From the NCBI RefSeq assembly GCF_988242995.1, contig NZ_OZ547043.1: a stretch of DNA of 64,000 bases. One strand, 5' to 3'. This document shows positions 11,960 to 63,757 of this stretch, one piece after another. The notes under the pieces were generated by a model, which was not told where the DNA came from, searched no databases, and worked only from the letters and a program-made list of their open reading frames with translations. How positions within the stretch are numbered: position 1 is the first letter of the stretch; each line of letters begins with the position of its first letter. The translations under genes were made by a program, and so were the position numbers.

Positions 11960-12874
11960 ATGACAAACTTCACGACCAGCACGCCGCATGATGCATTATT
12001 TAAAACCTTTCTCACGCACCCTGACACTGCGCGGGATTTTATGGAGATTCACTTACCTAAAGATTTACGTGAACTGTGCGATCTCGATAGCTTAAAACTG
12101 GAATCCGCCAGCTTTGTCGATGAAAAATTGCGGGCGCTACACTCCGATATTTTATGGTCGGTAAAGACCCGCGAAGGCGATGGCTATATCTATGTGGTGA
12201 TTGAACATCAGAGCCGCGAGGACATTCATATGGCCTTTCGCCTGATGCGCTATTCCATGGCGGTGATGCAGCGCCATATAGAGCATGATAAACGCCAGCC
12301 GCTACCGTTGGTCATCCCGATGCTATTTTATCACGGTAGCCGTAGTCCTTACCCCTGGTCCCTGTGCTGGCTGGACGAATTTGCCGACCCGACTACCGCA
12401 CGGAAGCTTTATAACGCCGCGTTCCCGCTGGTGGATGTTACTGTCGTGCCAGACGACGAGATTGTGCAGCATCGCAGAGTCGCCCTGTTGGAGTTGATCC
12501 AAAAGCATATTCGCCAGCGCGATCTGATGGGGCTTATCGATCAACTGGTAGTATTACTGGTTACAGAGTGTGCTAATGACAGCCAGATAACTGCGCTGTT
12601 AAATTACATTTTACTGACTGGCGATGAAGCGCGTTTTAATGAGTTTATCAGTGAACTTACCCGTCGAATGCCACAACACAGGGAGCGAATAATGACGATT
12701 GCAGAGCGAATTCATAATGATGGATATATAAAAGGGGAGCAGCGCATTCTTCGATTGTTGTTGCAGAATGGGGCGGATCCTGAATGGATACAAAAGATTA
12801 CCGGACTTTCGGCAGAGCAAATGCAGGCATTAAGGCAGCCCTTGCCTGAGCGCTATTCATGGCTCAAGAGCTAA
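11960..12874 (+). CDS. rpnD: Recombination-promoting nuclease RpnD (YhgA/transposase_31 family, PD-(D/E)XK), intact 304 aa
   Basis: Single uninterrupted 304-aa ORF ([36 protein letters not shown]...), the characteristic Rpn N-terminus; K-12 carries this locus as the split pseudogene yjiP/yjiQ (from memory). Confidence 0.8.
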
Positions 12875-14530: not shown

Positions 14531-14706
14531 GCTGTATTCCTTATTTGGACCATACAGAGAGAAAAACCGGTACAGATGAGGCTAAAAAACCGGATGCAGA
14601 TGCTGTTTTAACCTGTCTGTATGTTAAATAAAACTAATATTTGCATCTGTATTGTGAACTGCCTGAAGGTGGATGATGAAGCCTCTGAAAGATGAGGAGG
14701 CAGCAG

Positions 14707-14871
14707 ATGGAATTTTACGAAAACAAAGCCAAAACGCCGTTTATCAGACTTGTGCAACTCTGGCAGGCGGTGAGGCGTTGGCGGCGGCAAATGCAGACCC
14801 GACGAGTGTTACAGCAGATGAGTGATGAGCGGTTGAGGGATATCGGGTTACGCAGGGAGGATGTGGAGTGA
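14707..14871 (+). CDS. yjiS: DUF1127-family small protein YjiS (54 aa); below the ORF-track size cutoff
   Basis: ATG at 14707 preceded by a strong GAGGAGG Shine-Dalgarno; product MEFYENKAKTPFIRLVQLWQAVRRWRRQMQTRRVLQQMSDERLRDIGLRREDVE; stop TGA 14869-14871. Confidence 0.7.
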   Translation: MEFYENKAKTPFIRLVQLWQAVRRWRRQMQTRRVLQQMSDERLRDIGLRREDVE

Positions 14872-15320
14872 GGGGGATATAGATTTATATATAATAAAAC
14901 GTTTTTATGTTGTTAAATTAAGTTATAAAAATTTTCCCGAGACAATTCATCAATAGGTATGGAGTGTACAGGAATATCTTCTTCACTAACCTCTTTAAAC
15001 TCATACTGATAACGGTCAAAAAACGCACAGTGATTACTTGTGTTTTTTGACTGACTTTACAACTCTCATTATTCGCTATTGTGCAGTTTCTCTAATTGTT
15101 TTATATCCTGGAATGTTAAATGTCAGCTACTGAATACTTTTTGATTGTTTGAGATTTATTTTCATTTGAAATTATAAAATCAGGTGATAAATGAGTTGTG
15201 ATTAATAGATGGTTGATATCATTTTTATCAAAAATTGATTTCTAGTATCGACCTTAAAAAATAGTTGTTGCCGCTTGGTTAATTATACGATATTTTGAAA
15301 AGTTTTCTTTCAAATTAGAA

Positions 15321-18300
15321 ATGTTGTGGGGTTTTGTTTTTGTATCTTTTATCTCTAAGGAGCTTGCTTTGGGTCAATCAGAATACATTTCATGGGTAAA
15401 ATGTACTTCCTGGCTAAGTAACTTTGTGAATCTTAGAGGGTTGAGACAACCGGATGGACGTCCTCTTTATGAATATCATGCAACCAATGCTGAATATAAC
15501 CAATTAACGCAGCTACTCTGTGCTGTTGGTCAATCACAATCTAATATATGTAATAGAGACTTTGCTGCCTGTTTTGTTCTTTTTTGCTCTGAGTGGTACC
15601 GCAGGGATTATGAACGGCAATGCGGATGGACGTGGGACCCTATATATAAAAAAATAGGGATTTCATTCACCGCCACAGAGCTTGGTACTATCGTACCGAA
15701 AGGGATGGAAGATTACTGGCTGCGCCCAATTCGATTTTATGAATCTGAACGACGTAATTTTCTCGGAACATTATTCAGTGAAGGTGGTTTACCTTTCCGG
15801 CTACTCAAAGAATCAGACAGTCGCTTTCTGGCTGTTTTCTCCAGGATCCTTGGACAATATGAGCAAGCAAAGCAGTCAGGTTTTTCTGCCCTTTCGCTGG
15901 CAAGAGCTGTCATAGAAAAATCAGCGCTGCCAACTGTTTTTAGCGAAGATACCTCTGTAGAACTTATCAGTCATATGGCTGATAACCTCAATTCCTTAGT
16001 ACTTACTCACAACCTAACAAATCACAAAGAACCAGTACAACAGCTTGATAAGGTTCACCCTACCTGGCGAAGCGAGTTTCCAATACCGTTAGATGATGAA
16101 ACAGGAACGCATTTTTTGAATGGACTGCTATGCGCAGCCTCTGTAGAGGCTAAGCCTCGACTACAAAAAAATAAGAGTACGCGTTGCCAATTCTATTGGT
16201 CAGAAAAGCATCCAGATGAGCTTAGGGTGATAGTATCTCTTCCTGACGAAGTTTCCTTTCCTGTAACTAGCGAGCCGTCAACTACGCGCTTTGAACTTGC
16301 CATTTATGAAGATGGTGAGGAAGTCTCTGGCCTTGGGCCAGCCTATGCTTCCCTGGAAAACAGACAGGCAACAGTTCGATTACGTAAAAGCGAAGTGAGA
16401 TTTGTCAGGCAAAATCCATCTGCAGGTTTGTCGTTAGTGGCTCGTGCTGGAGGGATGATTGTTGGGAGCATTAAACTTGATGACAGTGAAATTGCCATTG
16501 GTGAGGTGCCGTTAACCTTCATCGTTGATGCAGATCAATGGCTGTTACAGGGACAGGCCTCCTGCAGTGTGCGAAGCAGCGATGTTCTGATTGTGCTCCC
16601 TCGGGACAATAGCACTGTTGCTGGTTTTGATGGCCAATCGAGTGCAGTAAACGTATTAGGACTTAAAGCGCTACCTGTTAAGGGATGTCAGGACGTTACA
16701 GTTACAGCAAATGAAACTTATCGGATTCGCACCGGAAGAGAACAAATCAGCATCGGAAGGTTTGCTCTAAATGGAAAGCGTGCAAGCTGGGTTTGTCATC
16801 CAGATGAGACATTTATTGGTGTACCAAAAGTCATTTCTACACTACCAGATATTCAAAGCATTGATGTAACGCGTTACCTGAGCGGAATTTCAATTGAGCA
16901 ATGTCATATACAAGAGATGCTAGGGGCTCAATATCTTTCTATCCGTAATAGTAATAATGAAACGCTCTTGCGTCGCAAAATCGGTATCTTGCCTGCTGAT
17001 TTCAGTATTGAGATAAAAGGTGGAATGCACGCAAATGAAGGCACTATCGTAATCACCACACAGCATCCTTGTGTAGCAACACTTAAAGATAAAACATTGG
17101 AGGCTACACGTAAGCGTACTGAGGGGCGAACAGAGATACAACTCAAAGCGGAAGGGGTACCTCCGGCATTTATTACATTACAAGTTCTGCCTAATTTGGC
17201 GGCTGATACCATCGACATTGAGTTACCTTTCCCAGCTAAAGGCTGCCTTGCTCTTGATGTAAACGGACGTCCTCTGGATAAAAACATTACGCTGCATGAT
17301 CTGCTGGGTTCCAGAGCATTCCTGTTCTCCAGAAATGGTGAGCCGACAAAATATACATTGCAGTTGCATTTGCGCTCCATTAGTGGATTACAGGCATGGC
17401 ACGAATGGAGTTATACGGCATTGAGCGAGCGTCCTGTTGAATTGAATCTCTATAGTCTACGTGAACACATTGAAAATCTGATTTCACTTGAGGCAGGTAT
17501 TGATCAGGTTGTTGAGATGCGTATTACGGGGGCGGGTGTGGTCATGGCCTGGCAAATTCGTCGCTATAAATACAGCCTGCGCTATGATTATGAAAAAGAA
17601 CTATTACTCAGCCAGTCAGTGAACCATCGTGCTGGACAGATTCCTTCCCCCGTTATCATGCTGTTAAGTGAACCCGAGAGGAAATCCATTCCCTTAGCAT
17701 CAAGAATGAGCGAGGGAGTGCCTGTCGGTGAATATGAGTTGAGCTCAATCGTTAACAAAAACGGACCATGGTTGGTTGTTCCTAAACCGGGTGAAGAGAT
17801 GGCTTTTCGCCCCTGCTTCATTCGTGGCGAATCTTCGTTACCGGTAGAAGAAAGCAACATCCGCTCATTGCAGAAAGCGACCCAGCTTTTTAATCCACAG
17901 GCAGAAGTTAATACCATCACACGGGTTCTCGGACAGATGGCTAACGATCCTGCCCATTCCGGCTGGCAATTTATGCGTAGCCTGTACGATCAATTTGGTT
18001 ATTTACCGCTGGCAACCTTTGAAGTATGGCGTGCACTAGTGCAGCATCCGCAGGCATTGGCGATGTCGCTCTTCAAATTCGAAATGTCAGCAGAGTATCT
18101 GAGTCGTATTGAGAATGAGTTCCCTATTTTATGGGAGTTTTTCCCCATCTTTGAGATCAAAGCTGCATCTGAGCGTTTCAAATTGTTCCTGAGCCAAAAA
18201 GGTGCACCGGAGGAAACCCAGAAATTACTGGTTACCAATATGTTTCAACGGCTGGGGCTCGTGTTCCCGACATATGCCGATGAAATTGAGAAATGGTTAA

Positions 18301-18659
18301 GTAATGGATATCTCCCCCCGTCTATTCCTGAATCTTGTGTCCACGGGTGGTATCAGGAGCTCTTACGTGAGCACAGTGAAGCTCGCTGGCCTGAATACGG
18401 CTGCAAGCGTCTGTATAAATGGATGATGTCACAAAAAAATCCAGTGATTGGTATTAATCCTGACGCAAATCACCGCTATTCCGTGGCCTGGTTACCCGTC
18501 TTCGCCGCAGCGGTGGCAAGCGGAAATGCTTCTTTTGAATCTGTATTTGACCGTAAACCCGGTGCCGTATTTTTCCTGAGGCAAGTCAGGGATTTCGATT
18601 CCCGCTGGTTTAAGGCCATCTTCCAGTTCAGCCTGTTGCGTTATGTTGCTAAAAAATAA
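15321..18659 (+). CDS. yjiT: Large protein of unknown function (1112 aa); intact counterpart of the K-12 yjiT pseudogene; candidate DruH-like partner of the downstream helicase
   Basis: Uninterrupted 3.3-kb ORF with no motif I recognise; AT-rich 5' end; alternative in-frame TTG start at 15369 has a perfect AAGGAG Shine-Dalgarno; stop is 12 nt before the next gene. Confidence 0.8.
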   Translation: MLWGFVFVSFISKELALGQSEYISWVKCTSWLSNFVNLRGLRQPDGRPLYEYHATNAEYNQLTQLLCAVGQSQSNICNRDFAACFVLFCSEWYRRDYERQCGWTWDPIYKKIGISFTATELGTIVPKGMEDYWLRPIRFYESERRNFLGTLFSEGGLPFRLLKESDSRFLAVFSRILGQYEQAKQSGFSALSLARAVIEKSALPTVFSEDTSVELISHMADNLNSLVLTHNLTNHKEPVQQLDKVHPTWRSEFPIPLDDETGTHFLNGLLCAASVEAKPRLQKNKSTRCQFYWSEKHPDELRVIVSLPDEVSFPVTSEPSTTRFELAIYEDGEEVSGLGPAYASLENRQATVRLRKSEVRFVRQNPSAGLSLVARAGGMIVGSIKLDDSEIAIGEVPLTFIVDADQWLLQGQASCSVRSSDVLIVLPRDNSTVAGFDGQSSAVNVLGLKALPVKGCQDVTVTANETYRIRTGREQISIGRFALNGKRASWVCHPDETFIGVPKVISTLPDIQSIDVTRYLSGISIEQCHIQEMLGAQYLSIRNSNNETLLRRKIGILPADFSIEIKGGMHANEGTIVITTQHPCVATLKDKTLEATRKRTEGRTEIQLKAEGVPPAFITLQVLPNLAADTIDIELPFPAKGCLALDVNGRPLDKNITLHDLLGSRAFLFSRNGEPTKYTLQLHLRSISGLQAWHEWSYTALSERPVELNLYSLREHIENLISLEAGIDQVVEMRITGAGVVMAWQIRRYKYSLRYDYEKELLLSQSVNHRAGQIPSPVIMLLSEPERKSIPLASRMSEGVPVGEYELSSIVNKNGPWLVVPKPGEEMAFRPCFIRGESSLPVEESNIRSLQKATQLFNPQAEVNTITRVLGQMANDPAHSGWQFMRSLYDQFGYLPLATFEVWRALVQHPQALAMSLFKFEMSAEYLSRIENEFPILWEFFPIFEIKAASERFKLFLSQKGAPEETQKLLVTNMFQRLGLVFPTYADEIEKWLSNGYLPPSIPESCVHGWYQELLREHSEARWPEYGCKRLYKWMMSQKNPVIGINPDANHRYSVAWLPVFAAAVASGNASFESVFDRKPGAVFFLRQVRDFDSRWFKAIFQFSLLRYVAKK

Positions 18660-18671
18660 AAAGGAATAAGG

Positions 18672-21600
18672 ATGACTACACGCTATTTTTCGTCACTTAT
18701 TGAACAATCGTTGTCTCGTTCAACTGAAGCAACGCTCAGTATCATGGGCGTTACAAACCCGCAGTTGCGTGAACATCTCGCGCAGCAAATGGGGGCTGAT
18801 TGTGGGAAACCGGGCTCATTCCTTGCTTCTCCGGTATTCCAGCAAATGTTTGGCTGGAAGGAGTCAAACCACACGATGCGCAGTCTGACGGAAGGCAACG
18901 CATTGTTGAGCAAAGCAGTGGTTGATTCACTGGATGATCAGAGTAATGGCCGGTACCGATTTGGTGCTGACTGGAAGCCTTTTACACACCAGTTAGCCAG
19001 TTGGAAAGCTTTGCTGGAAAAGAAACATTCAGTGGTGGTAACCAGTGGTACGGGTTCAGGTAAAACGGAATGTTTTATGGTACCGGTGCTGGAAGATCTT
19101 TACCGGGAACTGCATGAAAATGGCAACAATCCGTTGGTCGGTGTCCGAGCCCTTTTTCTCTATCCATTGAACGCCTTGATTAATTCACAGCGCGAGCGTC
19201 TGGATGCCTGGACGCGTGGTTTTGGTACTGGGATCCGCTACTGCTTGTATAACGGAAATACAGAAGAGCTCCACGCAAAAATGAAAACAGTGCAGGATAA
19301 TAGACCAAATGAAGTCTTATCCCGTGAAAAGATGCGTCTGGAGCCAGCCCCGATTCTGGTGACCAACGGCACGATGCTGGAATATATGATGGTTCGCCAG
19401 GTCGACGCCCCGATTATCCAGCAATCCAAAGCACAAAAATCACTACGCTGGATTGTACTGGATGAAGCGCATACCTATGTCGGGTCGCAGGCCGCTGAAC
19501 TGGCACTCCAGCTGCGTCGTGTGATGACAGCGTTTGGCGTGACGCCAGATGATGTGCGCTTTGTAGCGACCTCTGCGACCATTGCCTGCAGCGACGCCGA
19601 AAAGCAGCTGAAAAAATTTCTCTCTGAATTATCCGGTATCCCGCAGGAGCGCATCGATGTTCTGGACGGAAGTCGGGTGATTCCTGAACTGGAACCATCC
19701 AAAAACGTTTCTGTTCCGTTAGACGAAATAGAGCAAATACCTGATCTGGATCTAAAAGATAAAAATGATAATAAAATTAAAGGGATAAGCCCTGAGCGCT
19801 TTTATGCGCTTACGCACTCCCCCGAAGCGCGTTACATACGTGAAATGTTGGTTAGCCAACCCAATCCAATGAAACTGGATGAGATGACGCAGCGGTTAAA
19901 TGCGCTGACAAAACAGCATTACAGCCAGCAGGAAGTACTGCGTTGGATCGATGTCTGTTCAGGGACTCAACCTAATGCAAAGGATCCCGCATTTCTTAAA
20001 GTCAGGGCGCATATCTTCCAGCGTAATACCCAAGGAATATGGGCTTGTGTTGATAAAGATTGCAGATTAAAGCACGGTACACCGCTCGAAAAAGGCTGGC
20101 CCTTTGGCTATGTGTATGTGAACCAGCGACAAAATTGTGACTGTGGAAGCCCTGTATACGAAGTTGCATTCTGTAATGATTGTAATGAGCCTCATCTTCT
20201 GGCGCAGGACAAAAAGGGCAAACTTGTCCAATGGGAAAATAAAGGTGGCGATGAGTTCTCCTTGCAGGATGAAGTACCTGTTGAACATGACACTACAGAG
20301 GAAAAAGTCGAAAAAGAGAACGGTTTCCTGCCTCCGTTGATTATTGCCGCAGGAGAGACCAGCGAGACAGGCTATACCCTACAACGCCTCGACCACCAGA
20401 CGCGCCGTATTGGCGTTATTAACAATGACAGCATTCCGCTGATTATTAATGATGTTGAACAGGTTTGTAGCGCCAGTGGCTGTGGCTACAGAGGCATGAG
20501 TGGGAAACAGCCCTTCCGGCGTGCACTATTAGGTGGGCCATTTTACGTTACTAATATCGTGCCCACCGTTCTTGAGTATTGTCAGGACTTTACCAGTGAT
20601 GAAGGCAAAGAGGGCGTCGGACCAGATTCGTTGCCAGGGCGAGGACGTCGACTCATTACCTTTACGGACAGTCGACAAGGTACAGCTCGAATGGCGGTGC
20701 GTATGCAGCAAGAAGCAGAACGCAGTCTCTTACGCGGAAGCGTAGTCGAAATTCTGAGCTGGCATCAACGGACGCAAACGTCCACGGCGCCGAATGCCAA
20801 TGCCGATCTGGAAAAATTAGCGGCCAGGGCAAAGCAAGCCCGTGAGCAGGCAGAAGAATATCGAAGCTGGGGAATGCCAGACCAGGCGAAATTGTCACAA
20901 GCACAGGCTGAACAGCTTGAACAGGCTTATCAGGCTGCAACCGGTGGAAAAGCAGCAACTACCCTGGTATCCCGCACCTGGACAGAAATGGTTAACGAGC
21001 TTAAAGATAAAGCCGATATCCGTGGCCCGGTACTGAAATATAACCACTATTTGCAGCCTGAAGTGTTTAATAAAAACGGCGGGCCACTAAAGCTTTCGGA
21101 AATGTTGTTGTTCCGGGAATTCATGCGTCGCCCTAAACGGACTAACAGCCTGGAAACACAGGGGCTGGTTCAGGTTGGTTACCAGGGGCTGGAGAAAATA
21201 CATAAGAGCCCCTTGCACTGGCAGGAAAAAGGATTAACGCTGGATGACTGGCGCGATTTTCTCAAGGTTACGTTGGATCTTTATGTTCGCGAAAGCAACT
21301 TCACACAGCTGGATGATGAGCTGAAAAACTGGATTGGTAGCCGTTTTTCATCAAAATTCGTCCGTAACCCGGAATCAAAAGATCCTGAAGATAATCAGAA
21401 CAGACGCTGGCCTCAAATTCGTAATGGCAACGTATCCCATCGTTTAGCGAAGTTACTGATGCTGGGGGCTGGATTCAAAACCGTCAATACGGCGACTATT
21501 GATATTATCAATACATGGCTGAAAGAAGCATGGGCCCAACTTACCGGACCACTTGCAGTACTGAAACCCGATGGCAACCGTTTTTATTTACCGAAAGAGC

Positions 21601-24600
21601 ATATGACTTTTTCTTTAATCACGGATGCCTGGATTTGCCCGGTAACCAATAAAATCCTGGATACGGCTTTTAAAGGCTTAACCCCTTATCTGCCCACCCA
21701 TATTTCGTTCGAGCATCTTACCCAGGCGCAATATGACACTTTTGTCGCGCAGAAAGTCACCATGCCGGAAATCTGGAAGCTGGATCGTTCACAGGAAGAC
21801 TACGCAGAGGGTCTGGCAAAAGCACGAGACTGGGTCAACAATGATCCGCTGATCGCACAATTGCGGTCGGAAAACGTCTGGACAGACATCAACGATCGTG
21901 TAGTGGAAGGCGGTTTCTACTATCGCACTGCCGAGCACTCTGCCCAGCAGTCGTCAGAACGCCTGCAAAGCTATGAAAAGATGTTCAAGAACGGGCAACT
22001 AAATGTTCTCAACTGTTCCACCACCATGGAAATGGGGGTTGATATTGGGGGCATTACTGCGGTGGTAATGAACAACGTTCCGCCACATCCGGCCAACTAT
22101 TTACAGCGCGCCGGGCGAGCCGGGCGTAGTAAAGAATCACGCGCGATCTCTTATACCCTATGCAAAGGTAACCCACACGACCAGCAGGTTTTTGCCAACC
22201 CACTCTGGCCATTTGAAACCATGATCCCGGCACCCATGGTCGCGATGAACTCCGCCCGACTGGTGCAACGTCACGTCAATGCATTATTACTGTCTGACTT
22301 TTTATGTAACGTTATTGGCGAAACCGATAAAGAGAAAACCAGCCTCGATAGCCTCTGGTTTTTCGGTGAAGATGACGGGCAGTCAAAATGCGAACGCTTT
22401 AAAGTCTGGCTGGAACGCCCGGTTCTTGATATCGACATGGCGCTGGAACGGCTGGTGAAAGGTACGGCGTTGCATGGCGCAAGAGCCGAACATCTGCGGG
22501 ATAAAACAATCAATGCGATCACCTTCCTGCAACAGCGGTGGCTCTCCGTTTATCGCGATCTCGTGACCCAGGAGCGTGAGTCGCAGCCGCAAACGCCTTA
22601 TCGTAAGCGCATAGAGCTGGAGAAGAAACGGCACTGTGGCGAGTATCTGCTGCGCGATCTGGCTGCCAGAACCTTCCTGCCGGGATACGGTTTCCCGACA
22701 GATGTAGTGACGTTTGATAACTTCACGATGGAAGATTATATCCGCGAAAAATCGCAGAAAAGTCGTGATAAAAAGGACCGTGAAGATAACGTCTCCCGTT
22801 ATAAAGGATTACCTTCCCGTAACCTCGGTGTTGCCATTCGTGAATATGCACCGGGAGCAGAGATCATTCTTGATGGTCGTGTCTTCCGCTCTGCCGGTGT
22901 CTCACTGCACTGGCACAACATTAATGCTGATACCAATGAAGCCCAGCGTCTGGATTGCGCCTGGCGCTGTCACAAATGCGGGACCATTGGCTATGAAGAG
23001 GGGATGAGCAGTTCCGGGATGCTCTTTTGCTCCAACAGCGCCTGCGGCGAAAAAATAACCATGGATAATCGCCGTCAGGTGTTGCAGCCTGCCGGGTTTG
23101 TCACCGATGCACACGCTCCGGTAACGAACAATATTGAAACCATGAAATTCGTCCCGGTTGTCCCCGCGTGGGTCTTTGTTAAAGCAGAGCCTGTACCGTT
23201 GCCTAACCCGCTAATGGGTTATATGGCTTCTGGGGCTGATGGGCATGTTTTCCAGCAAAGTTTGGGGGAAGGTGGACACGGTTATGCATTGTGTCTGAGC
23301 TGTGGCCGTGCGGAGTCGATGCTGAATGAAAATGATGCACCGAAAAGTATGGAAGCTCACTATCCACCGCGTCCGGGTAAAGCGGACCGCGACAGCCAGA
23401 ATCATCGTCTGATTTGCCCCGGTTCGACGGCACTCATGAAGAACGTCACCCTGGGCGCACTGGCGCGCACCGATGTCTTTGAAATGGTTCTGCGCAAACC
23501 GCAAAACGGCGAGTATCTGCCAGATAACACAGAAGAGGGGCGGATTGTCGCTATGACTCTGGCGGTTGCTCTGCGTCAGGCGCTGGCAGGCGTTCTGGGT
23601 ATCTCCGCCGCAGAACTCGGCTATTCTGTACGTCCGGTCAGACTGGAGGATGGGCAATCGGTATTAGCCGTTCAGCTTTATGATGTGATCAGCGGTGGTG
23701 CTGGTTTTGCCTCCAGCGCACCGGTACATATTGAAGCTATATTGCAGGGAATGGTGAAACAGTTAGGCTGCCGCCATTGTGATACTGCATGCAGTGAATG
23801 TCTGCTTGATTCCCAGACTCGCCACGATCACGATTTGCTGGATCGCAAAGTGGCGCTGGCTTGGCTTGGCGATGACTTCACGTATTACATCGGTTTACCG
23901 GATGAAGAGACATTCTCGCTGCCGGATGCCCGCTACTGCCCTGGCGCTATTGGCGATACGATTCGCCGGGCGATTAACGAAGGCGCTGAAAAGCTCACCC
24001 TGTGGATGACTGGCGCGCCCAATGAGTGGGATTTATACGGCCGTCAGTTCCGCGCGGCTATTCAGAGCTATCGGCTAAAAGACAACGTCGAGGTCGATCT
24101 TGTTATTCCTGCGGGAGTGGATGACCCAGACCTGTTGCATGAACTATCGCAATTTACTGCGCTGGGTGTGCGGTTGTGCCATGTTGAGCAGGAGCTGCAA
24201 TTACCGATTGTTGCCCAGGTCACCTTTGCCGATCGCGTGATGACGCTGGCCTCTCGCAGTCAGCAGGCAACGATTCCGGGGCCGGAGTGGCACCTGAATG
24301 ACGAACTGGTGGTGCGTAGTCTCGGTTATCAAACGGTAGAACTGAACGAGTTTATTCTGCCCGCTAAAGCCGCCAACGCTGTCGAGCGGGTCAAAGACAT
24401 TCAGATCCACAAACAGTTGAATGGACCACTTTCGCAGTTTGGGCAACGCTTCTGGGACGTGCTGTTTAACGACCATGAAGAAGCGCAGTCACTGATGAAA
24501 AACACGCGAATTACCGGCGTTCACTATACCGATCGCTATCTGCAAAACCCGGTTGCGCTGGCGTTGTTGGGATCAATTCTGAAACCGCTAAAAACAAAGC

Positions 24601-25016
24601 TGACCGATGGCGCTGAAGTGGCGCTGGATACGCTGTTTAAAGATAAAGATCGCCCCGGTAACCGGCCTTTCCATGACTGGATGAGCATAGCGGATTTTCA
24701 GGATTTCGCTGATCAGTGGTTTGCTGCTGCGCTGGGCAGGCCGATAGAACTGACGGTGTTCGATTCGCCGCGCGATATCCCTCACCATCGTAAACTGACG
24801 GTGACTTTTGAGGATGGTCAGGTATTGAAGATCCGCTTCGATCAGGGGATGGGCTACTGGCGCATCAACTTTGCATCGCAATGGCATTACTTTGATTTCC
24901 GCGATGACGTTTCTTTCCAGTTAGTCAAAATGGCTCAGGCCTGCAAGGAAGGGAATGTGGCCAACAGCGAAGAGAGCTGGGCAACGGATGTGCTGGTGGA
25001 GGTGATCGCCTCCTGA
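18672..25016 (+). CDS. yjiV: Giant SF2 (DEAH-type) helicase with Cys-ribbon modules (2114 aa); intact counterpart of the K-12 yjiV pseudogene; candidate DruE-like defence helicase
   Basis: AAGGAATAAGG Shine-Dalgarno before ATG 18672; Walker [10 protein letters not shown] (aa 124-132, nt 19041-19067); motif II VLDEAH (aa 262-267); motif [10 protein letters not shown] (aa 1145-1152); Cys clusters near nt 20046-20184 and CxxC...CxxC near nt 23292-23812. Confidence 0.85.
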
Positions 25017-28228: not shown

Positions 28229-29653
28229 TCAGAACTTTTTACGCGAGGCTTTTTTACCCCCGCTGGCTGCGCGCTCAGCTTTGATTTTCTCCAGCAACGC
28301 AGCGGCGCTGTTTTCTCCGCTGATTAAATCCGGGTTTTCGGCCCGCCACTGGGCGGTGAGTTCACCACGGAACGCTTTTGCCAGGATGGATTGCGTCAGG
28401 TTGTTGACGCGGGCTAAGGCGTTGTTGACCTGTTTTTCTATGGAGTCGGCGTAGGCGAAGAGTTGCTCGACGCGGCGAACGATTTCGTGTTGTTCTTCTA
28501 TAGACGGTAAAGGGACAAATGCATTTTTAAGATCTTTTAAATTTAATGTCTTTCTGGCGACCTCCTTAGATGACTGAACTAGCCATGTTTGCATAACTGG
28601 TGAACTTAACCATATATGGAGAAACATAGGAACAATAATCTTATATTCAGGAGATATTCTGGCAACGGCACGAGCGATATTAACATTTATATCTTCTCTA
28701 ACAATACCTATTCTACCTATAGCCCCAACAATTGTTACAAGAATGTCATTCTTTCGTACTTTGGAACGCTTATATTGTAAATCTATTTCCTTTGAAATTT
28801 TACGAAGATGATTTAAATCTACTTCACCATCGTTAATATCACAAACACGAATTAATTCTATACCGTCTTTTATATCATCTCCAGGTTGCACCACACCATA
28901 ACATAATGGTCTTTGTGTATTGATAATGTTATTCAAAATTGTTTCACTCCAGTCTTCTGGAATAAGGATTTTGTAGTTATCTAATTCAACTTTTTTTGTT
29001 ATAAAATCTTTATCTTCTTTGGTCAACCTACCAGTTACTGCCGCAGCCAACACCGCCTGACGAAAACGTTTCAGGATTTGTGGGATTTGCTCAAGGCGTG
29101 CTTTGGTGCTGTCTACCTGCGCCAGCAGCGTATCGAGTTTTTCAGCGATGATTTTTTGCTCGGCAAGTGGTGGCAACGGAAGTAGGGTATCTTGAAGTGT
29201 CCTGGAAGAAAGATGCTTTACAGTAACCGAGGACGTATTTGCATTGATTGCGGATAAATATCCTGGTAAGGCGTGATAGAAAAACCTTTTATTGTATTTG
29301 TCTTCCTGAACTTCAATTTTACATACTCGTTGATTTAACAGAGCTGGTTCTGAGCACCATATAGTTGCATTAAAATCACCATCCATTCCCACGATTAAGT
29401 CTTCGGGATATACCCAATATCCCTCAGGAATTTGACCCGAGTAATAAGTCGATGTATTACCTTTTAGAACATCACGAATTCTAATTAATGGTACACCATC
29501 TTTACGATTATTAAATTCTGACGACTTAAAAGCAAAACCGTTTGTGATGTTTGCTACGGAATCCATTGAAATACGTAACCAGCTATCATGGATTGAAAGT
29601 AACCCATTGATATTTTGCTCAATTAATTCTTTTGATGTTGAGTTGAAACTCAT
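28229..29653 (-). CDS. hsdS: Type I restriction-modification specificity subunit HsdS (474-aa allele)
   Basis: 474-aa ORF; GC-richer conserved N-terminal, central and C-terminal segments separated by two very AT-rich blocks (target-recognition domains); 4-nt overlap with hsdM. Confidence 0.9.
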   Translation of the reverse strand: MSFNSTSKELIEQNINGLLSIHDSWLRISMDSVANITNGFAFKSSEFNNRKDGVPLIRIRDVLKGNTSTYYSGQIPEGYWVYPEDLIVGMDGDFNATIWCSEPALLNQRVCKIEVQEDKYNKRFFYHALPGYLSAINANTSSVTVKHLSSRTLQDTLLPLPPLAEQKIIAEKLDTLLAQVDSTKARLEQIPQILKRFRQAVLAAAVTGRLTKEDKDFITKKVELDNYKILIPEDWSETILNNIINTQRPLCYGVVQPGDDIKDGIELIRVCDINDGEVDLNHLRKISKEIDLQYKRSKVRKNDILVTIVGAIGRIGIVREDINVNIARAVARISPEYKIIVPMFLHIWLSSPVMQTWLVQSSKEVARKTLNLKDLKNAFVPLPSIEEQHEIVRRVEQLFAYADSIEKQVNNALARVNNLTQSILAKAFRGELTAQWRAENPDLISGENSAAALLEKIKAERAASGGKKASRKKF

Positions 29654-62413: not shown

Positions 62414-63031
62414 AACTCGCCCTTTGTCATAGACGTGCTGCGTATTGTTCAGATAATGAGAATCCATTTGTATCATGAAGCACGGTTGTTTTGCGGTAGG
62501 TTAAGATCAAAATTGCGCTGATTAATCCTGGTTATCGGGACAAGCTCGGTGATAAAAAGCGAATTATCTCTCGCCGCAAACAAACTATCACATGAATATT
62601 ATCACTATAATGAATTTATTGTTTGGCCTTTACGAATCAGGATAATAGATAACCGGGCACGTTTTTTAATGTTAACAAGTTAAAACCATCAGATTTCATT
62701 GAATAAATATTGGTTGTGTGATTTTTCATTCTGCGGGAAGGGATATCATTTAATTATAAATTAAATGAATGTGATTTCTGTTTTTCATTAAGTATTCCTA
62801 ACAACTTAATGTAGATATTTTAAATGTCTCCAGGCTATTTCACCAGGTTATCATTTGATGCTAACCTTCTGACACATGCAGTGGAGTTGTTGTGCAGCAG
62901 GAGTATGCTGATATGAAAGTGAATGCTAAGGATAATTTATTCGCTTAATCTATTAATTTGCTGGAAACATTTAAGGAATGAATATCCTGAATAAACCATC
63001 ATGATTTTTAGACAGTGGATGTGGAGGAAAT

Positions 63032-63757
63032 ATGTTGCCAGGATGCTGCAAAAATGGAATTGTTATCAGTAAAATACCTGTTATGCAAGCAGGGTTAAAA
63101 GAGGTCATGAGGACTCACTTCCCTGAATATGAAATAATATCCAGCGCCTCTGCGGAGGACCTTACCTTATTACAATTACGTCGTTCCGGATTAGTCATTG
63201 CTGATTTAGCCGGTGAAAGTGAAGATCCTCGTTCTGTTTGTGAACATTATTATTCTTTAATCTCACAATATCGGGAAATTCACTGGGTTTTCATGGTGTC
63301 ACGCTCCTGGTATTCCCAGGCAGTAGAATTGCTCATGTGCCCTACGGCGACGTTATTGTCTGATGTTGAACCCATTGAGAATCTGGTCAAGACCGTACGT
63401 TCCGGCAATACGCACGCAGAGCGTATCAGCGCCATGCTGACCTCTCCGGCAATGAATGAAACTCATGATTTTAGCTATCGCTCCGTCATTCTCACTCTTT
63501 CAGAGCGCAAGGTACTGCGGCTATTAGGTAAAGGATGGGGCATCAACCAGATAGCTTCGTTGCTTAAGAAAAGTAATAAAACTATCAGCGCCCAAAAAAA
63601 CAGTGCGATGCGTCGACTGGCAATTCACAGCAACGCTGAAATGTATGCATGGATAAATAGCGCGCAGGGTGCAAGAGAACTTAACTTGCCTTCTGTTTAT
63701 GGAGATGCCGCAGAATGGAACACAGCCGAATTAAGAAGAGAAATGTCGCACTCATAG
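63032..63757 (+). CDS. yjjQ: LuxR-family transcriptional regulator YjjQ
   Basis: 241-aa ORF; C-terminal LuxR/FixJ HTH ([41 protein letters not shown]); long AT-rich leader. Confidence 0.8.

Follow-up and report, generated by a model that had tools for sequence, protein, structure and literature searches.

The AT-rich leader and TTG start codon of a Druantia type III cassette in the Escherichia coli immigration control region

Within the 64-kb stretch of DNA analysed here (the window), the 497 bp separating yjiS from the next large open reading frame (ORF) most likely represent a non-coding regulatory leader of a druH-druE cassette, with druH starting at a TTG codon and its expression probably governed by a weak promoter and dampened by H-NS. 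We assign this joint reading a probability of roughly 0.8. The features on which the argument turns are as follows.

14707-14871, plus strand: yjiS (DUF1127; Pfam DUF1127, E = 2.3e-13), the conserved framework gene left of the variable region, annotated by PGAP in strain CFS3313
14871-14878, no strand: left junction of the variable cassette, where homology with genomes lacking druHE stops
14872-15368, plus strand: AT-rich non-coding druHE leader (promoter region and 5′ UTR), the stretch of lowest GC content, without conserved ORF, Rfam match or terminator
15149-15178, plus strand: predicted sigma-70 promoter, TTGAGA-18-TATAAA
15321-15323, plus strand: first codon of the longest ORF, an in-frame ATG judged not to be the real start; without a Shine-Dalgarno sequence and lost in some alleles
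15357-15362, plus strand: Shine-Dalgarno sequence AAGGAG; AGGAG and a 6-nt spacer are conserved in nine Enterobacterales species
15369-15371, plus strand: TTG start codon of druH (yjiT); the homologous position is TTG in ten species and GTG in two Proteus species
15369-18659, plus strand: druH (yjiT), 1096 aa; PADLOC DruH3 PDLC00049; WP_021548607.1, 'protein YjiT'
18672-25016, plus strand: druE, 2114 aa, a helicase with an MrfA-type zinc-binding domain; PADLOC DruE3, E = 0

A two-gene cassette directly behind yjiS

Comparison of the 1112-residue translation from the upstream ATG with the PADLOC profile for DruH3 (PDLC00049) returned an E value of 0 and 1829.8 bits, with residues 19-1112 aligned to positions 3-1099 of the 1100 in the profile; DruH homologues bear the Pfam domains YjiT_N and YjiT_2nd. 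The product of the following gene contains DEAD (2e-22), Helicase_C (7.8e-12) and MZB (3.1e-9) domains and exhibits clear homology along its full length to the protein in PDB entry 9tu7 (E = 0, 1018 bits). The druH stop codon occupies 18657-18659 and the druE ATG begins at 18672, 12 nt later on the same strand, with a GGA-containing Shine-Dalgarno sequence between them. The window thus contains a DruH-family protein, a large SF2 helicase DruE with an MZB/DUF1998 domain, and a two-gene operon in the order druH to druE, as is typical of Druantia type III. Because the ORF encodes DruH (YjiT) and the next gene DruE, the pair can be identified as a Druantia type III defence operon. An anti-phage role for these particular genes would be expected from homology; the systems for which protection has been demonstrated all belong to a DruH subfamily that is a distant relative.

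Among the 5426 complete E. coli genomes compared, yjiS occurs in 3739, whereas the leader and druH are found together in only about 628. When positions 14600-15700 of the window were used as the query, matches to cassette-free genomes stopped at query position 272-279, and the cargo found after yjiS elsewhere includes GmrSD, symE-hsd and penicillin acylase. This presence/absence polymorphism and the sharp junction at the yjiS stop codon establish the accessory status of the segment; strain CFS3313 is 100% identical across the tested region. An earlier proposal, made in a preliminary description of the window, that the cassette had been acquired horizontally is therefore supported by the loss of E. 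coli homology behind the yjiS stop and by the variety of cargo found at that point. By these genome comparisons, the locus is a swappable two-gene, putatively anti-phage cassette, which fills the variable slot directly behind yjiS in the immigration control region of E. coli.

The start codon of druH

The in-frame ATG at 15321-15323 is preceded by ...caaattagaa and, as had been remarked in the preliminary description, has no Shine-Dalgarno sequence. The TTG at 15369, also in frame and 16 codons downstream, lies at exactly the coordinates given there, behind a perfect AAGGAG from which it is separated by the 6-nt spacer CTTGCT (15363-15368). Comparison of orthologues and alleles supports initiation at this TTG so consistently that we regard the question as effectively settled.

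The arrangement (A)AGGAG-N6-TTG/GTG recurs in 11 other Enterobacterales species, comprising representatives of Salmonella, Atlantibacter, Serratia, Citrobacter (two), Enterobacter, Raoultella, Pseudenterobacter and Proteus (two) as well as E. whittamii, with some variation in the Shine-Dalgarno sequence (GAGG with a 6-nt spacer and GTG in Proteus; AAGGGG in E. whittamii). Farther upstream, the sequence cannot be aligned in any of the 11 except E. whittamii. Eight of them lack any in-frame start upstream of the TTG/GTG. The N-termini of DruH homologues align at the TTG-encoded residue and open with M-[GS]-x-S-[ED]; the PADLOC profile likewise aligns from the TTG, and residue 12 of the DruH structure in PDB 9tud pairs with residue 30 of the translation from the upstream ATG. 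Furthermore, the TTG is the start used by RefSeq/PGAP and by the MG1655 K-12 reference, and all RefSeq annotations that we inspected agree.

Use of ATG 15321 would yield a 1112-aa DruH with a hydrophobic N-terminal extension of 16 residues (MLWGFVFVSFISKELA). The longest ORF does open at this codon, in the window strain and in K-12 alike, and some initiation without a Shine-Dalgarno sequence is possible on A/U-rich leaders. These points are outweighed by the missing Shine-Dalgarno sequence and by the fate of the codon among sampled alleles, in which position 15321 is ATA in E. coli 504239 and ETEC-2265 (ATA-TTC) and TTG in E. whittamii, and by strain 1105, which has GTA followed by an in-frame TAG (GTA-TTG-TAG) and yet retains an intact 1096-aa gene. 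In Salmonella, Atlantibacter and Raoultella, such an extension is also excluded by an in-frame stop that precedes the TTG by 5-6 codons, and the 16 residues occur in no homologue and are used by no annotation. Initiation at the ATG is thus largely refuted by sequence comparison, and we give it hardly any credence. The suggestion that the N-terminus is 16 codons shorter than the ORF implies is accordingly borne out by the 11 species, the E. coli alleles and the RefSeq annotations. It is not novel, as yjiT is given this TTG start both by PGAP and in the MG1655 reference; the proposal is correct, but restates a known annotation.

On the comparative evidence, druH is translated from TTG 15369, with AAGGAG 6 nt upstream and a U-rich initiation region that is predicted to be locally unstructured, and ATG 15321 is a mere accident of the open frame. 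Folding predictions indeed give the initiation region less structure than its shuffled counterparts (z = +1.54). In Salmonella and Atlantibacter, the Shine-Dalgarno sequence could be sequestered in a GCAAG-GAG-CTTGC hairpin; this candidate was dropped because only 3-4 pairs are left in E. coli.

Composition, transcription and H-NS

The spacer from yjiS to druH measures 449 bp to ATG 15321 and 497 bp to TTG 15369. Its GC content is 0.286 over 14872-15371 (0.278 over 14872-15320; 0.286 over 14872-15368), clearly below that of the flanking yjiS (0.527) and yjiR (0.550) and of the whole window (0.509). Only 0.05% of the 500-bp tiles in the window have a GC content as low as 14872-15371, and the global 500-bp minimum of the 64 kb (0.282) begins at 14877. 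Over 500 bp of leader, AT reaches 71.4%, compared with 49% for the window (T 41%, A 30%, G 16.5%, C 12%); there are 19 runs of A or T of at least 4 nt, and the TpA step has a frequency of 0.101 as opposed to 0.044 in the window. The AT-rich, tract-laden stretch reported between yjiS and the 1112-aa ORF in the preliminary description is thereby confirmed. The accompanying statement, which extends the AT-richness to the 5′ portion of the ORF, is true as well, but the effect there is modest: GC is 0.32-0.39 in 15300-15599 and 0.42 in the first 500 nt of druH, compared with 0.46 in the remainder of the gene. Strong AT-richness is confined to the 0.5-kb leader, and druE (0.51) is at the genome average. 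Across the enterobacterial orthologues, this upstream region is kept in composition and not in sequence; the 300 bp preceding druH have a GC content of 0.28-0.34 in all Enterobacterales orthologues, compared with 0.39-0.45 in the gene.

A sigma-70 promoter has been predicted by Shimada et al. (2014) for the K-12 yjiS>yjiT spacer, and the sequence is present in the window, with the -35 element at 15149-15154 and the -10 element at 15173-15178. It falls below the thresholds of our consensus scans, its TATAAA is a poor -10 element that lacks the conserved final T, and its -35 element is not conserved in E. whittamii. Consensus scans revealed no strong promoter in the leader, and promoter-like hexamer pairs were, if anything, scarcer than in shuffled sequences (0 versus 4.1 expected; in a second scan, 18 versus 27 ± 6). 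Genomic SELEX experiments in vitro placed an RpoD-holoenzyme site as well as an H-NS site in the K-12 spacer (Shimada et al., 2014; PMC3946193). An inverted repeat, TTGATA-N7-TATCAA, at approximately 15213-15231 is a possible regulator site, and falls where the leader is least conserved.

These data bear on whether the leader has a promoter at all. It might instead be a junction that cassette exchange has left behind and that has drifted in composition, with druHE transcribed by read-through from the yjiS promoter. The shared orientation of yjiS and druH and the lack of promoter enrichment are compatible with such an origin, as are the absence of any terminator-like site between the two genes in our scan and the rapid divergence of the leader, which is 80% identical to that of E. 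whittamii while the protein is 95% identical. However, an RpoD-holoenzyme binding peak is reported inside the K-12 spacer, cassettes of other genera still have approximately 300 bp of AT-rich DNA upstream although their genomic contexts are different, and an untranslated stretch of 497 nt would be a likely target for Rho termination. We consider a promoterless leader improbable. Transcription would most likely start from the weak sigma-70 promoter predicted within the leader, and read-through from yjiS may contribute, because no intrinsic terminator separates yjiS from druH.

Even less probable, in our estimation, is that the leader conceals an unannotated functional element, whether an sRNA, a cis-regulatory RNA or a gene for a small protein. 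In strains in which yjiT is disrupted, a 65-aa antisense 'hypothetical protein' is annotated by PGAP within the leader, and conservation with E. whittamii is higher in two blocks (~15019-15113 and ~15159-15213) than in the remainder of the leader, which could be taken to favor such an element. In the window, however, there is no minus-strand ORF of at least 20 aa across 15116-15313, each of the three forward frames is interrupted by stops at intervals of ~40 nt, and no ORF in the leader is conserved across alleles. Searches of Rfam at permissive thresholds returned only sub-threshold snoRNA models that amount to noise (E = 0.24-0.76; 14-17 bits versus gathering scores of 36-65), and folding of the putative 5′ UTR gave no more structure than that of shuffled sequences (z = +0.59).

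The low GC content had also been read as the signature of H-NS-silenced DNA and of a cassette repressed under laboratory conditions. Binding of H-NS is supported only indirectly, in that the composition fits the preferences of H-NS and the K-12 spacer contains an in vitro SELEX site. Near-matches to the H-NS motif are more frequent in the leader tile than in any other tile of the window, but their number (7, versus 5.1 ± 2.3 in shuffled sequences) is explained by base composition alone, and AA/TT periodicity gave no sign in the leader of the A-tract phasing that indicates curvature. Action of H-NS on the druHE leader is a plausible hypothesis. Repression under laboratory conditions fares worse, as the evidence from K-12 yjiT opposes a fully silent locus: an RNA polymerase ChIP-chip signal is present there in the wild type (PMC5811629), and the K-12 literature describes binding of YiaU to yjiT and differential expression of yjiT in a yiaU mutant.

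In its strongest form, silencing of the leader by H-NS/StpA would be complete, with druHE off in the laboratory until a counter-silencer or stress signal intervenes. An AT content of 71% over 500 bp, the SELEX site and the weakness of the promoter-like sequences all accord with this scenario, whereas the polymerase signal and the YiaU-linked expression of K-12 yjiT do not. Other Druantia III operons, moreover, are functional in laboratory-grown K-12 when driven by their native promoters, which is evidence by analogy only, because the leaders differ. For the ATCC 8739 Druantia III system, hns deletion lowered defence rather than raising it (bioRxiv 10.64898/2026.05.13.724758), a result that does not speak for Druantia operons being simply silenced by H-NS, albeit for a different leader and context. 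Complete silencing is thus conceivable but, on balance, unlikely. Since the AT- and TpA-rich leader should be a good substrate for H-NS/StpA, we favor the milder possibility that H-NS probably dampens expression without abolishing it. Together, the weak promoter, H-NS, and a conserved weak TTG with a strong Shine-Dalgarno sequence would be expected to set a low, tuned level of DruH.

Implications and comparison with known systems

A highly speculative extension is that the H-NS-prone leader serves as an infection-responsive switch, in which H-NS/StpA, the weak promoter and the conserved weak TTG keep DruH low in uninfected cells, and druHE is boosted once this restraint is lifted, either by anti-H-NS proteins of the phage or by incoming AT-rich phage DNA that titrates H-NS. 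If this were true, the AT-rich upstream region and non-ATG start of the orthologues would be a selected expression-control module and not drift. More immediately, longest-ORF calling over-extends druH by 16 codons, and cloning or tagging should use the MGQSEY... N-terminus; for a related DruH, every tag tested, whatever its position, abolished defence (bioRxiv 10.64898/2026.05.13.724758). The conserved non-ATG start with its strict AGGAG-N6 and AT-rich upstream region could be of use in tuning Druantia III expression. Leader and start features are nonetheless already known, and neither the conserved start nor the AT-rich upstream region alters current understanding, so that their value lies mainly in annotation hygiene.

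The window represents an instance of the immigration control region, the hot spot between yjiS and yjiA for cassette-like variation in restriction and defence genes. Variable DNA starts directly after yjiS, and the window carries mcrBC, symE and hsd; other strains differ, their cargo consisting of different defence genes or of unrelated genes. In K-12, yjiT (b4342) occupies the same locus, with a leader (4571916-4572413 in U00096.3) that is ~97% identical and a segment corresponding to 15305-15371 that is identical. Two internal deletions in K-12 (window positions 16878-19894 and 22045-24228) have reduced yjiT to a 5′ fragment of druH and yjiV to fragments of druE, whereas the operon in the window is intact.

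Like the H-NS-bound xenogeneic promoter regions of the proU and bgl class, the leader is high in AT, rich in TpA and located on accessory DNA, and in K-12 its allele figures among the H-NS-binding sequences from genomic SELEX. It differs from that class in having neither motif enrichment beyond composition nor A-tract phasing, and in that only 0.5 kb is strongly AT-rich. The Druantia III systems that have been studied (E. coli ATCC 8739, EDL933 and ECOR19; PDB 9tud for DruH and 9tu7 for DruE) likewise consist of a two-gene druH-druE operon. They reside, however, on a separate island, where Zorya II and ARMADA II flank them, their leader and genomic context differ from those in the window, and the relationship of their 1119-aa DruH to the protein described here is only a distant one (78.6 bits, mainly over residues 30-282).

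The druHE locus and the left edge of its cassette

The leader, an AT-rich stretch at 14872-15368, separates yjiS from the first gene of druHE, and the features on either side are as follows:

14707-14871: yjiS, DUF1127
DruH ORF, listed mechanically from ATG 15321, 1112 aa: PADLOC DruH3, E=0, nearly full length
18672-25016: DruE, PADLOC DruE3, E=0; Pfam DEAD, Helicase_C and MZB

The DruH and DruE ORFs make up a Druantia type III anti-phage operon. E. coli CFS3313 has an identical sequence (100%) over this part of the window, and its PGAP annotation gives yjiT and 'DEAD/DEAH box helicase' for the two genes. Downstream of druHE are mcrC, mcrB, symE and hsdS/M, which places the locus in the immigration control region of E. 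coli. DruE is related over its full length to the solved DruE (PDB 9tu7; 1018 bits); the match of DruH (15369-18659) to the solved DruH (PDB 9tud) is weak (78.6 bits) and lies mainly in residues 30-282. On sequence grounds, the immigration control region seems to encode, in its YjiT-type DruH, a subfamily that still awaits experimental study. Two genes upstream of the yjiS junction lies a gene for an Rpn-family recombination-promoting nuclease (11960-12874), which is intact in the window and in CFS3313 and carries an internal stop in K-12.

The preliminary description singled out 14872-15371 as strongly AT-rich, and windowed GC content confirms that it differs from its flanking genes, at 0.286 compared with 0.53-0.55 for yjiS and yjiR and 0.509 for the window. 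No other part of the 64 kb reaches so low a value over 500 bp (0.05% tail), the minimum itself, 0.282, starting at 14877. The accompanying statement that the 5′ part of the ORF is likewise AT-rich holds in part: GC is about 0.32-0.39 up to 15600, but the AT-richness reaches only weakly into the ORF, whose first 500 nt have a GC content of 0.42 versus 0.46 for the remainder. Two further AT-rich troughs, at ~28480-29040 (at the hsdS end of the symE-hsdS region) and ~62485-63140, have 500-bp GC values down to 0.31.

Whereas yjiS is carried by 3739 of 5426 complete E. coli genomes, the leader and the druH 5′ end occur together in only about 628. For most yjiS-carrying genomes the match stops at query position 272-279, corresponding to window 14871-14878, directly past the yjiS stop codon. 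In other strains, this slot is occupied by DUF262/GmrSD genes, by symE plus various type I restriction-modification systems, or by penicillin G acylase followed directly by yjiA. An exchangeable cassette thus begins, on its left side, with the AT-rich leader. This leader is also present in K-12, at about 97% identity, but the K-12 derivative JME64 lacks window segments 16878-19894 and 22045-24228; K-12 yjiT corresponds to the first 1.5 kb of druH, and the yjiV pseudogene to two druE fragments. Thus, K-12 retains an intact leader, and the Druantia III operon that follows it is dead. Insertion sequences were also encountered here: IS1B after ~15165 in strain AMSCJX03 and IS1A at ~15367, at the start codon, in Z1323PEC0013 (druHE and mcrBC being lost as well in both), and IS3 at ~16168 in strain 504239, where yjiT is truncated. 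These independent breakpoints in or beside the leader fit, if anecdotally, the reported capture of transposons by AT-rich, H-NS-bound DNA.

The start codon of druH

It had been proposed that the DruH N-terminus is 16 codons shorter than the ATG version (the 1112-aa ORF from ATG 15321), and all lines of evidence examined agree that this is correct. Inspection of the sequence reveals no Shine-Dalgarno preceding ATG 15321, and an AAGGAG at 15357-15362 separated by a 6-nt spacer from the in-frame TTG at 15369, as originally described. Every RefSeq annotation inspected (CFS3313, JME64, 504239, 1105, WP4-S18-ESBL-08 and the MG1655 reference, with yjiT at 4572414) begins yjiT at the TTG equivalent. 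The PADLOC profile alignment starts at residue 19 of the ATG version, and residue 12 of the 9tud DruH aligns with its residue 30. Homologous proteins (46-72% identity, 91-95% query coverage) lack about the first 16 residues of the ATG version and have N-termini of the form M-[GS]-x-S-[ED]-[YFL] at the TTG position.

The same initiation arrangement was found at the DNA level in 11 other species (Salmonella, Atlantibacter, Serratia, two Citrobacter, Enterobacter, Raoultella, Pseudenterobacter, two Proteus and E. whittamii). In nine species, 6 nt separate an AGGAG from the TTG; in E. whittamii the motif is AAGGGG, with equal spacing and again a TTG, and the two Proteus have GAGG-N6-GTG. Sequence farther upstream is alignable, among these 11, with E. 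whittamii only. No in-frame start codon whatsoever was found upstream of the TTG/GTG in 8 of the 11, and the frame is closed about 4-5 codons upstream in Salmonella, Atlantibacter and Raoultella. Among E. coli strains, 504239 and ETEC-2265 have ATA (then TTC) in place of ATG 15321, and strain 1105 carries GTA-TTG-TAG at this site, an in-frame stop, with an intact yjiT of 1096 aa.

Among the 628 carriers, 15305-15371 is the window/K-12 allele in 509 and has 1-3 base differences in 119. Positions 15330-15447, comprising the U-rich end of the 5′ UTR, the Shine-Dalgarno, the start and the first 26 codons, show no variation across five E. coli alleles that differ by 3-6% in the upstream leader; for E. 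whittamii the alignment covers 15330-15400 and contains four changes. Shuffled versions of the initiation region (15325-15400) are more structured than the native one (z = +1.54), in line with what an accessible start should show. Given this concordance, the real DruH is 1096 aa with the N-terminus MGQSEY, a TTG start that is already standard annotation and hence correct but known.

Leader signals and H-NS

Apart from the druH initiation signals, nothing functional was found in the leader. Searches there yielded no ORF conserved across alleles and only snoRNA-model noise from Rfam; the putative 216-nt 5′ UTR shows no stronger folding than its shuffled versions (z = +0.59), and no terminator-like site occurs between yjiS and druH. 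Promoter-like hexamer pairs in the leader are weak and unenriched (0 versus 4.1 expected; 18 versus 27 +/- 6 in a looser scan). The sole published promoter assignment comes from genomic SELEX with RpoD holoenzyme, which gave a peak in the K-12 yjiS>yjiT spacer with TTGAGA-18-TATAAA as the best-match motif (Shimada et al., 2014; PMC3946193). This motif is present at 15149-15178, and remains a prediction because E. whittamii does not share the -35 and the -10 is without the customary T at its end. Where yjiT is disrupted, PGAP calls a 65-aa antisense (-) 'hypothetical protein' at the equivalent of ~15116-15313; no ORF of this kind reaching 20 aa exists in the window, and the call is therefore probably spurious. 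An earlier study listed 'yjiT' as a sigma-32 ChIP-chip target (U00096.2 position 4570170, roughly window 15100, inside the leader), which a re-investigation failed to reproduce (PMC2996942); the signal may represent non-specific pull-down of AT-rich DNA.

The preliminary description further read the AT-richness as the signature of acquired, H-NS-silenced DNA. A role for H-NS is plausible, and published work on the K-12 allele supports it in part. The composition of the leader, with 71% AT and a TpA frequency of 0.101 versus 0.044 for the window, fits H-NS binding, and an H-NS site was mapped in the K-12 yjiS>yjiT spacer by in vitro genomic SELEX (Shimada et al., 2014; PMC3946193). The leader tile contains more near-matches to the 10-bp H-NS motif than any other window tile, a count that agrees with the expectation from composition alone (7 versus 5.1 +/- 2.3), and no A-tract phasing was found in the leader. 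We consider it likely (probability roughly 0.6) that H-NS binds the leader. Full silencing under laboratory conditions is considered rather unlikely. K-12 yjiT gives an RNA polymerase ChIP-chip signal, lower in an rpoZ mutant (PMC5811629), and reports also describe binding of the LysR-type regulator YiaU to yjiT and differential expression of yjiT when yiaU is mutated; these observations argue against complete silence. A Druantia III of another subfamily (ATCC 8739 / EDL933) functions from its native promoter in K-12, and there hns deletion lowered, rather than raised, the contribution of Druantia III to defence (bioRxiv 10.64898/2026.05.13.724758). Its DruH, however, is only a distant relative of the window DruH (78.6 bits) and is located in another island, and the system therefore serves as an analogy and not as a test.

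Comparison across druH orthologues

GC content is 0.28-0.34 over the 300 bp preceding druH in every Enterobacterales orthologue, versus 0.39-0.45 in the gene, and these upstream sequences are unalignable, E. whittamii excepted. More distant homologues (Pseudomonas and others), in contrast, start with ATG and have upstream GC equal to that of the gene. Thus, the non-ATG start, the strict AGGAG-N6 spacing and the AT-rich upstream sequence together represent a conserved trait of the enterobacterial clade, and the conserved start and composition would be in keeping with selection that holds DruH expression at a low, tuned level. The AT-rich leader is a real feature that involves no departure from known biology.
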